Shown: one piece after another, positions 1 to 11,308 of the stretch
Layout: every line of letters begins with the position of its first letter
How positions within the stretch are numbered: position 1 is the first letter of the stretch
Source of the DNA: an uncultured Thermococci archaeon
GTDB lineage: Archaea; Methanobacteriota_B; Thermococci; Thermococcales; Thermococcaceae
DNA length: 11,616 nucleotides
Reading direction: 5' to 3'
Assembly: GCA_964615185.1 (NCBI GenBank)
Contig: CAZTOS010000007.1
Coordinates: 32,370-43,985, forward strand
Position numbers and translations under genes: made by a program
Notes under the pieces: model-generated
The model's database searches: none
Seen by the model: only the letters and a program-made list of their open reading frames with translations
Told to the model about the DNA's origin: nothing

Positions 1-18
1 CATTTCTCTCCCTCCAAT
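1..18. repeat. Direct repeat copy 1 (RBS + start codon of the next minus-strand gene beyond the window)
   Basis: catttctctccctccaat; 16/18 identical to 657-674. Minus strand reads attggagggagagaaATG. Confidence 0.6.
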
Positions 19-491
19 AAACTTTGCATTTCACTCAAAGATTTTTGTCGTACTAAAATGGAAGGTATTCCCAATGTTTCAGCATGCTTCACCATTTTTT
101 CGTCATCACTAATTAGCAGTGTGCCAAACATTTTTGCTACTGCCAGAAAATATGTATCCAATCCCGAAGCACCGGTTTTACATGCAATGTCAAGAGCAAT
201 TTCCTTAATTTCCGCTTCTTCAATTATGGTAAATGAATTCTCTATACCCGTAGCAAACTCTTTTGCAATTTCCTCATTCCTAATCAATCGTTTTATGACA
301 CTTGCTGTCTCTATGACAATTGGATATGGGACATAAACATCAAAGGACATAATCTTCCTGAGGATCAATCTGCATTTTTCATGAGTTTCCAGCCCACGCT
401 CTATTACATGAGAAGGAATATTTTTTGGTTTAAAAAATGCCTTGATTATTATATTGGTATCAACAGTAAACTTTTTTTCGCCCCCTAACAT
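1..491 (-). CDS. vapC: PIN-domain (VapC-type) ribonuclease toxin, about 163 aa; stop codon probably cut by the window edge
   Basis: Manually translated (not in ORF track): ATG at 491, MLGGEKKFTVDTNIIIKAFF...VIETASV...SGLDTYFLAVAK...LLISDDEKM...LLEGEK, then 'TG' at positions 2-1 (probably TGA). PIN acidic residues are present (VDTN, E, D, SDD). Confidence 0.9.
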   Translation of the reverse strand, partial: MLGGEKKFTVDTNIIIKAFFKPKNIPSHVIERGLETHEKCRLILRKIMSFDVYVPYPIVIETASVIKRLIRNEEIAKEFATGIENSFTIIEEAEIKEIALDIACKTGASGLDTYFLAVAKMFGTLLISDDEKMVKHAETLGIPSILVRQKSLSEMQSLLEGEK

Positions 492-659
492 CCTCAAGCA
501 CTTCCTCAATGTTTTCAGAAGTTTCAAATTGGTATTTTTTAGAAGGTCAACTATTGTAGGCCCAATAATAACCTTAACTTTTGCCCCTTTTGGTAGGTTT
601 ACTCTTTTTAAAGGTTTGAATACCTCCCCATCATATACGGCCTCAACTACCTTAGTCAT
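460..659 (-). pseudogene. AF2212/DUF104-like antitoxin, frameshifted (or recoded) at an A6 run
   Basis: ATG at 659 (ATGA overlap with the DUF123 stop), MTKVVEAVYDGEVFKPLKRVNLPKGAKVKVII is the AF2212 signature. The zero frame has no stop and runs into the toxin. The -1 frame after 540-534 gives YQFETSENIEEVLEDVRGRKKVYC and TGA at 462-460, a 66-aa product. Confidence 0.8.
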
Positions 660-1099
660 CTTTCTCCCTCCAATTCTCTAACTTCATCAGGACTTTTAAC
701 ACTTTTCCACTTTAATCCCAATTTTTGGAGAATATCAGTTAAGATTTTATCCGGTTCATCTTTGAAATAATAGAGATTTGAGCCTATTTTTAAATCGCTC
801 GCCCCAAATCCTTCAACGGGCTTTCCGAATTTAGAAACCTCCATTGAGAGCTCCTCTTCGATTTTTACATTACTTGGAATTATATAAGCCCTCAGAAGCT
901 CGGATTCTTTAAGAAGAAAATCAATATGCCAGTGAAGCTTTTTGTCTTTTTTAAAGTGCCTCTCAACTCTCTTCTCAAGGGAGTTCATTGCAGAGCCCAC
1001 ATAGACATAATACCCTGCTTTAAGGGGAAACTCTTTTCTTTTGGTTCGTACAATCATGTCTCTTTCGACTTTAATGACTAAGAAATATGAGCCCCTCAT
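656..1099 (-). CDS. DUF123 / GIY-YIG (Uri superfamily) nuclease-like protein, 147 aa
   Basis: GSYFL...GYYVYVGSA...RVERH...KLHWHIDFL...GFGASD motifs typical of archaeal DUF123; AGGTGA RBS just upstream. Confidence 0.85.
   Translation of the reverse strand: MRGSYFLVIKVERDMIVRTKRKEFPLKAGYYVYVGSAMNSLEKRVERHFKKDKKLHWHIDFLLKESELLRAYIIPSNVKIEEELSMEVSKFGKPVEGFGASDLKIGSNLYYFKDEPDKILTDILQKLGLKWKSVKSPDEVRELEGER
657..674. repeat. Direct repeat copy 2 (RBS + start codon of the antitoxin)
   Basis: catctttctccctccaat; minus strand reads attggagggagaaagATG. Confidence 0.6.
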
Positions 1100-11107: not shown

Positions 11108-11308
11108 ATGGGGAAGAAGATGGGAATAATAGAGGCAGTTTATGAAAATGGAGTGTTCAAACCTCTAAAGAAAGTAAAAGCTCCAAAAAAGGTTAAACTG
11201 GTGATAATCAAAGACTTTGAAAGGGACTTAGAGGAAGTTTTTGGCATCCTTGAGGAGGACATAGACATCAAAAAACTCAGAAGTGAGTGGGATAGAGGAT
11301 GTATTTAG
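11108..11308 (+). CDS. AF2212/DUF104-like antitoxin (start may be 11120)
   Basis: IEAVYENGVFKPLKKV signature, acidic C-terminus, overlaps a PIN gene. Confidence 0.88.
   Translation: MGKKMGIIEAVYENGVFKPLKKVKAPKKVKLVIIKDFERDLEEVFGILEEDIDIKKLRSEWDRGCI

Follow-up and report, generated by a model that had tools for sequence, protein, structure and literature searches.

Type II toxin-antitoxin pairs need more antitoxin than toxin. Among the predicted type II pairs are those in which an AF2212-like antitoxin gene (COG2880, DUF104) precedes a gene for a PIN-domain toxin, and the available part of Makarova et al. 2009 names no COG2880-PIN fusion (PMC2701414). In Saccharolobus solfataricus, the heptamer of fucA1 directs a -1 frameshift of about 10% in cell extracts (PMC1616953); a review gives the spacer between a slippery site and its stimulatory structure as 5-9 nt (PMC8211752). 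In Haloferax, premature stops abolish downstream translation at ATGA overlaps, that is, coupling is strict (PMC6728339), and archaeal polarity is attributed to FttA in a review citing work on T. kodakarensis (PMC12548453). GGGP synthase, the enzyme encoded next to the pair studied here, makes the first ether bond of archaeal lipids (PMC4244643).

In this study, a toxin-antitoxin pair at the left end of a window of 11,616 nucleotides (the window being the whole stretch of DNA analysed) from an uncultured Thermococci archaeon was investigated. The window belongs to a genome (G000) of 138 contigs that is 95.6% complete. Sequencing runs containing DNA of this locus are mostly labelled hydrothermal vent metagenomes. 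The features of the locus, in order of reading on the minus strand, are as follows.

656..1099, minus strand: DUF123 (GIY-YIG-like) gene (Pfam PF01986, E 2.9e-22).
537..659, minus strand: antitoxin codons 1-41, the AF2212-like (COG2880/DUF104, AbrB-like) N-terminal part, retained in the fusion (PF01954, E 1.1e-13).
534..540, minus strand: run of six A followed by T (A-AAA-AAT), polymorphic, with seven A in sister populations (run contigs and metagenome contigs L057 and L051).
460..537, minus strand: antitoxin tail left behind in the -1 frame (in the A7 product, residues 42-66), with its stop at 462-460; near-identical or identical in four of four intact antitoxins.
492..536, minus strand: basic linker of 15 codons, net charge +5, read in the A6 allele only (from translation).
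3..491, minus strand: PIN-domain (VapC-like) toxin of 163 aa (PF01850, E 9.8e-12).
443..454, minus strand: site of a 12-nt in-frame deletion at about toxin codons 13-17, between CAA repeats (runs X2, X8 and X12).
57..197, minus strand: site of a 141-nt in-frame deletion of toxin codons 99-145 (joint 56-198 in runs X1, X3, X8 and X12).
1..15, minus strand: GGAGG (15-11) and ATG (3-1) of GGGP synthase (from L057, the identical locus).

Translation confirmed the reading frames claimed by the first-pass annotation. The minus-strand ATG at 659 opens 219 codons without a stop, and the toxin start (M57, at 491) is in frame with the antitoxin. Codons 40-42 read CTA AAA AAT (542-534), which places A-AAA-AAT (540-534) in the X-XXY-YYZ phase; past codon 41, the -1 frame leads to the claimed antitoxin tail, for a total of 66 aa, and to TGA at 462-460. 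That this tail is reachable only by a -1 shift is true of A6 carriers; A7 carriers read it normally. The single ORF holds two Pfam domains, AF2212-like at residues 1-44 and PIN at residues 66-193. The antitoxin alignment matches PDB 2nwt at positions 1-30 (E 1.2e-06), and the paralogue at 11108, to which the 66-aa product had been likened in size, is indeed an AF2212-like protein of 66 aa. The toxin starts 29 nt before the antitoxin stop, the same distance as in orthologues. Of the 169 nt that precede the toxin ATG, only 48 are open in the toxin frame, and the A-run lies at the edge of this open stretch.

The pair is set in a string of overlapping genes. The TGA of DUF123 overlaps the antitoxin ATG (ATGA, 659-656, minus strand), and the TGA that ends the fused ORF at the window edge overlaps the ATG of GGGP synthase, again as ATGA; the latter is visible in L057, an A6 metagenome contig identical to the window over 1200 of 1200 bases, perhaps from the same assembly. 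The pair is therefore flanked by ATGA overlaps on both sides, towards DUF123 and towards GGGP synthase. GGGP synthase matched NCBIfam TIGR01769 with 278 bits (cut-off 161.55); of two matches to the family in this genome, only this gene is over the cut-off, and we infer that it is essential in this organism. In all seven same-genus genomes examined, DUF123 overlaps the GGGP synthase ATG directly (-4 nt), without the pair. A near-perfect direct repeat of about 20 nt, containing the GGAGG motif and the ATGA overlap, flanks the pair (window 1-20 and 656-677, minus strand); recombination between its copies would yield the arrangement of these seven genomes. This gene string, and the destruction of the toxin in many lineages described below, were overlooked by the first-pass annotation. 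Each end of the window lies at a 100-N scaffold gap within a PIN toxin gene, with duplicated flanks. The left gap is likely caused by the bubble of the 141-nt deletion, which matches it; beyond 11616, the right gap could reflect a polymorphism of the same kind in the paralogous toxin at 11299.

The length of the A-run was called on contigs of eight runs, one from each of eight studies, among 20 matching runs; in such calls, rare variants drop out and strains can be mixed. The fused allele, A6, was found in four runs (X1 at depth 30.8, X2 at 5.8, X6 at 4.0 and X8 at 19.8). The other four runs (X3 at 41.1, X9 at 5.0, X10 at 5.4 and X12 at 6.6) carry A7, which encodes the 66-aa antitoxin and a separate 163-aa PIN toxin. 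X1 is possibly the source run of the window assembly. A pattern scan of metagenome contigs gave eight matches, six of them due to chance; the two from this locus are L057 and L051, the latter an A7 contig that is 97% identical and contains two ordinary genes of 66 and 163 aa. A protein collection held four intact antitoxins, three separate toxins and one fused record. A6 is a natural inherited allele, and A7 is the two-gene form.

The PIN domain of the window contains D11, E61, D112 and D130, which are near-invariant in alignments of 33-34 homologues; a catalytic role is assigned to the acidic residues of PIN domains from knowledge of the family. A search of solved structures with the toxin gave nothing below E 0.028, and the best PIN matches were at E 0.11-0.23. 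The window toxin differs from all three A7-type toxins by E33G, T70I, G71R and K74E. Of 34 homologue alignments, 31 have G at position 71 and none has R, and we propose that G71R, T70I and E33G may weaken the full-length PIN. A dense block of substitutions at 237-408, relative to the toxin haplotypes of X8, X10, X12 and L051, is a sign of recombination within the toxin gene. The populations with A6 and A7 also carry toxin deletions. The 12-nt deletion, found in three runs, lies just behind the first acidic residue, and the 141-nt deletion, found in four, removes D112 and D130. In X1, the form with the 141-nt deletion is the minority (depth 9.8, against 18.1 for the full form), so that about two thirds of the possible source population combine A6 with a full-length PIN in which all four acidic residues are kept, and a third is already without half of the PIN domain. 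Among A6 contigs that reach into the toxin, that of X2 has the 12-nt deletion, that of X8 has both deletions and that of X1 has the window substitutions. Toxin loss can occur without A6, because both deletions are also found with A7.

Decay of the toxin is not confined to these populations. A syntenic antitoxin after DUF123 was found in 21 of 96 other genomes of the family, in every case unbroken at the position of the A-run. Of the 21 orthologous toxins, 12 are intact, eight are gutted and one is cut by a contig end (L083, left out). The overlap typical of an AF2212-PIN pair is present in the A7 allele (L051) and in the 12 intact orthologues. The window antitoxin is closest to the syntenic ones (58-69%); the window toxin does not show this preference, at 34-41% for the syntenic toxins and up to 44% for paralogous groups, which raises the possibility of a toxin swap (L020, L035-L045, L022-L034). 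In one genome (G048, locus L089), about 130 nt that look unrelated take the place of the toxin, yet a 51-codon frame leads from the toxin ATG to the native stop. A pattern search for the toxin in genome contigs gave 218 pattern matches, none of which was confirmed.

The gutted orthologues carry toxin deletions of 240, 285, 375, 411 and 411 nt, which are multiples of three, and of 326, 410 and 419 nt, which are not; three of the eight represent one shared event. A mechanical rule was applied to these loci, in which the antitoxin is translated and one restart near its stop is permitted. Under this rule, all eight broken loci ahead of GGGP synthase are translated to within 21 nt of its ATG, seven of them to the native toxin stop. 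A6 and the 12-nt and 141-nt deletions of the present locus likewise keep translation running to the GGGP synthase start. As a control, an AF2212-PIN pair was used that stands ahead of a gene, presumably nadA, with its own TATA-like box (the motif occurs in 11 of 12 loci); 12 of 15 loci were included, L117, L120 and L126 being located elsewhere. Six of the 12 contain a break, which is a nonsense codon, a frameshift or a deletion. Four of these six leave 113-398 nt untranslated and two pass the mechanical rule, a count in which some of the frameshifts could be assembly errors. The difference between eight of eight and two of six has a Fisher p of 0.015 when loci are counted and of 0.06 (two-sided) when independent events are, and related genomes are not independent. 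Short repeats in these genes by themselves bias toxin deletions towards multiples of three (39-55%); under this bias, six in-frame deletions out of eight have a p of 0.05-0.14.

These lesions suggest a filter by which only non-polar lesions survive, and we consider the chance of such a filter a little better than even. Operon polarity in archaea was reportedly described by Santangelo in 2008. GGGP synthase has its own GGAGG in an organism that uses SD motifs, and it may not need coupling. In the same genome, a frameshift in the antitoxin of another pair (on contig C52) leads to an early stop upstream of another isoprenoid gene, yet it is tolerated.

Structure modelling gave a prediction of what the antitoxin loses in the fusion. 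Antitoxin residues 34-66 modelled on the PIN domain scored 0.64, against 0.02 for the best of three controls. On this scale, 116 of 157 solved pairs attained the mark, as did 2 of 215 mismatched ones; this calibration is roughly applicable here, and VapBC-like pairs can pass by likeness. The three runs of the model share at least 97% of contacts, with a partner pLDDT of at least 74. The modelled interface comprises antitoxin residues 34-40, 43-52, 54-55 and 58-61, and on the toxin side, residues 61, 112 and 130 are among the contacts. The fusion retains residues 34-41, and its basic linker (+5) replaces the acidic core at 43-57 (net -6). The prediction is therefore that the fusion lacks most of the surface that would bind and neutralise the toxin. 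A6 encodes one ORF of 219 aa, and the two polypeptides of a toxin-antitoxin pair are found in A7 carriers only; the separate start at ATG 491 may still be used in the A6 allele.

Other AF2212 antitoxins of this genome are broken as well, three of nine in all. As background, three internal frameshifts were found in 244 genes compared with genome G007 (27 of the 244 were flagged, of which 23 were set aside by eye as start-codon extensions or shadow ORFs and one is broken in G007). They are deletions of 8, 2 and 1 nt at C46:8041-8638, C98:371-842 and C4:14712-15468. The C52 antitoxin (C52:10602-10774, minus strand; L059 1160-1810) is broken in a shortened A-run, with a phased A-AAA-AAC and a stop two codons on, and the reading frames suggest a former A7 form. 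Its PIN protein seems about five residues short near the end. The neighbours of this pair we take to be the genes for RNase J and GGPP synthase; a DNA query for the pair gave no match in the 96 relatives. Two of the broken-antitoxin pairs of this genome thus stand ahead of lipid-pathway genes. The third broken antitoxin (C92:3054-3200, minus strand; L060) has an in-frame TAG, and no recognisable PIN gene follows it.

Fusions by frame breakage were also met elsewhere. Protein P0011 comes from a different lineage, where a deletion fused the same pair and two catalytic Asp are lost; its frame continues past the GGGP synthase start, and the search that found it sought long proteins and was biased toward in-frame cases. 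At L124, antitoxin and toxin are fused by two extra C, and a second frameshift lies inside the toxin. At L092 (G007:C1:100001-120000), a 220-aa ORF joins an MNT-like and a HEPN-like gene, presumably an MNT-HEPN pair, by a frameshift; the two genes are separate on contig C72 of G000. Judged from these sequences, such fusions are a recurrent accident wherever an antitoxin tail overlaps a toxin start, and they are seen in three other lineages.

Four other explanations of the fused frame were considered, two of which treat the A-run as a device. According to one, -1 shifting at the heptamer is programmed or co-opted: about a tenth of the ribosomes would slip and supply antitoxin that silences a still active PIN. 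The first-pass annotation correctly named A-AAA-AAT as the slippery site of fucA1 (PMC1616953), the match is exact and in phase, and on fucA1 the shift in extracts is about a tenth. It also draws on the full-length PIN of the majority X1 haplotype, on the phased A-AAA-AAC at the break of the C52 antitoxin and on the modelled interface residues 34-40, which the fusion would keep. However, the heptamer is not independent evidence, because losing one A from CTA-AAA-AAA-T necessarily yields a phased A-AAA-AAT. It is also common: it occurs in phase 122 times in 115 of the 1867 mechanical ORFs of at least 150 aa in this genome, a second time at codon 79 of the same fused ORF, and the A7 allele itself contains three phased heptamers. 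No stimulatory RNA structure stood out above shuffles downstream of the heptamer (five of five segments, z -0.59 to +0.30). The weak stem pointed out by the annotation is present in the sequence but folds no better than these shuffles, and it starts 11 nt after the heptamer instead of 5-9 nt (PMC8211752). The split frame with its slippery site is kept in none of the 21 syntenic orthologues, and the gene is unsplit in four of the eight near-identical populations; the orthologue comparison that the annotation had proposed for A7 found no A-run at codons 40-42 in any of the 21. Toxin output would exceed antitoxin output, the opposite of what such pairs need (PMC13488343), and A6 also sits on dead toxins (X2 and X8), where an antitoxin is superfluous. 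Thus, of the marks of a programmed -1 frameshift, a phased heptamer was found, and a stimulator and conservation in orthologues were not. A programmed shift is not supported and is in our view unlikely; slippage on this heptamer would be a leak, not a program. We regard as similarly improbable the idea that a pair ahead of an essential lipid gene, unbreakable by ordinary stops, evolves a dimmer, that is, a fused ORF with antitoxin made only via -1 slippage. If true, no toxin-antitoxin system that depends on recoding would have been found in archaea before it, and a programmed frameshift would have been caught in nature half-way through its birth. According to the other, the run is a phase-variable DNA switch, in which A7 and A6 interconvert by slipped-strand mispairing and set subpopulations with and without free antitoxin. 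Both alleles are common (four of eight runs each), and A6 and A7 occur with and without the 12-nt toxin deletion, in all four combinations, on single contigs. Yet a plain substitution at 647 shows the same four combinations with this deletion, and A6 was found with one base only at 647. One origin of A6 plus recombination therefore suffices, and the four combinations were discounted as evidence of recurrent flipping. No run had both A6 and A7, and neither A8 nor A5 was seen, among the contigs of the eight runs. Length variants of the kind expected of a contingency locus were found, but the tract is conserved in none of the 21 orthologues, and a homopolymer of 6-7 nt is short for such a locus. 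We consider a phase switch quite doubtful. The annotation had offered recoding or a phase-variable switch as one of its options, an unlikely one given the missing stimulator, the absence of the run from all 21 orthologues and the sufficiency of a single origin with recombination.

The remaining two explanations concern the fused protein and its record. A selected new protein, in which an AbrB-like DNA-binding domain is tethered to a PIN nuclease and is self-inhibited or retargeted, would account for an open frame of 219 aa that contains both domains and the four acidic residues of the PIN, and fusions of this family arose more than once. Against it, the protein collection holds a single fused record, and among the 150 listed of 276 AF2212 matches (80 genomes), only this locus has an open frame of more than 152 aa. 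A search for longer relatives found one protein among 8000 candidates scored, P0011, which is without two catalytic Asp; the other fusions carry further breaks, and half of the PIN domain is already gone in a third of the possible source population. A homologue search with the fusion gave three matches among 334 candidates, all PIN-only. Selection for the fusion is thus very unlikely. The last explanation is a homopolymer error of sequencing or assembly, another option of the annotation. It is suggested by the 138-contig assembly, by the position of the locus next to a scaffold gap and by the recording of the fused protein from one contig only. An assembly error is out, because A6 and A7 were each found in four of eight runs from eight studies. 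A6 appears in contigs of three of the seven runs other than the possible source (X2 at 5.8, X8 at 19.8 and X6 at 4.0, dated 2018, 2022 and 2025), and in X1 it has a depth of 30.8. Moreover, none of the 153 A-runs of at least six in the 244 genes compared with G007 differs in length. An error was thus refuted at contig level and is hardly credible.

The explanation we prefer, and consider probable, is that the loss of one A from the A7 run fused antitoxin residues 1-41 to the PIN toxin as a step in the decay of the pair, and that the lesion was kept as a non-polar one. About two thirds of our confidence in it goes to decay with a non-polar filter, and one third to plain drift without a filter. 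It agrees with the loss-of-function option of the first-pass annotation, which is supported by toxin decay here and in orthologues. The toxin would have been weakened or killed first, as suggested by the deletions that accompany an intact A7 antitoxin and by G71R, T70I and E33G in the window PIN. The antitoxin would then be free to drift, and its longest A-run would slip, with the slippery heptamer as a by-product of the A loss. Lesions followed by a long untranslated stretch ahead of the lipid gene would be removed through loss of coupling and polarity, so that in-frame deletions and this fusion would be the survivors. The persistence of A6 is probably explained by translation, which would still continue up to the stop that overlaps the GGGP synthase start. 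The end state would be the clean loss of the pair, as seen in the seven same-genus genomes. The main gap in this decay reading is that the full-length PIN of the window keeps its four acidic residues.

In sum, the event is of an ordinary kind, a broken toxin-antitoxin pair. It carries a warning that an in-phase slippery heptamer at a frame break can be the product of a one-base loss in an A-run, and that most antitoxin-toxin "fusion proteins" of these archaea are accidental. The locus offers a natural series of lesions at one place, almost every one of which lets translation proceed to the GGGP synthase start. If the filter is confirmed, this would be field evidence that coupling or polarity shapes how archaea shed selfish modules inside operons. 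Among the papers listed by literature searches, none dealt with this locus or with this lesion pattern.

The locus resembles the archaeal systems of coupling and polarity in that ATGA overlaps flank the pair and a premature stop upstream would be expected to lower downstream expression (PMC6728339, PMC12548453). Those studies used laboratory mutants, whereas the effect is read here from natural lesions only; moreover, SD motifs are not what drives de novo initiation in Haloferax, the organism in which coupling was demonstrated (PMC6728339). With fucA1 of S. solfataricus, the locus shares an identical heptamer in the same phase and the existence of relatives with an uninterrupted gene and one A different in the run (PMC1616953, PMC8211752). 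In fucA1, however, the shift rescues the full-length enzyme, whereas the long product here comes from the unshifted frame; and fucA1 has a measured shift, a putative stem-loop and rare codons, whereas no stimulator is seen here and the pair is decaying. The closest likeness is to the predicted COG2880 (DUF104, AF2212)-PIN type II pairs, in which an AF2212-like gene overlaps a downstream PIN gene. Carriers of A7 have an ordinary example of these pairs as described by Makarova et al. 2009 (PMC2701414), and the A6 allele differs from them as a single ORF without the antitoxin tail.
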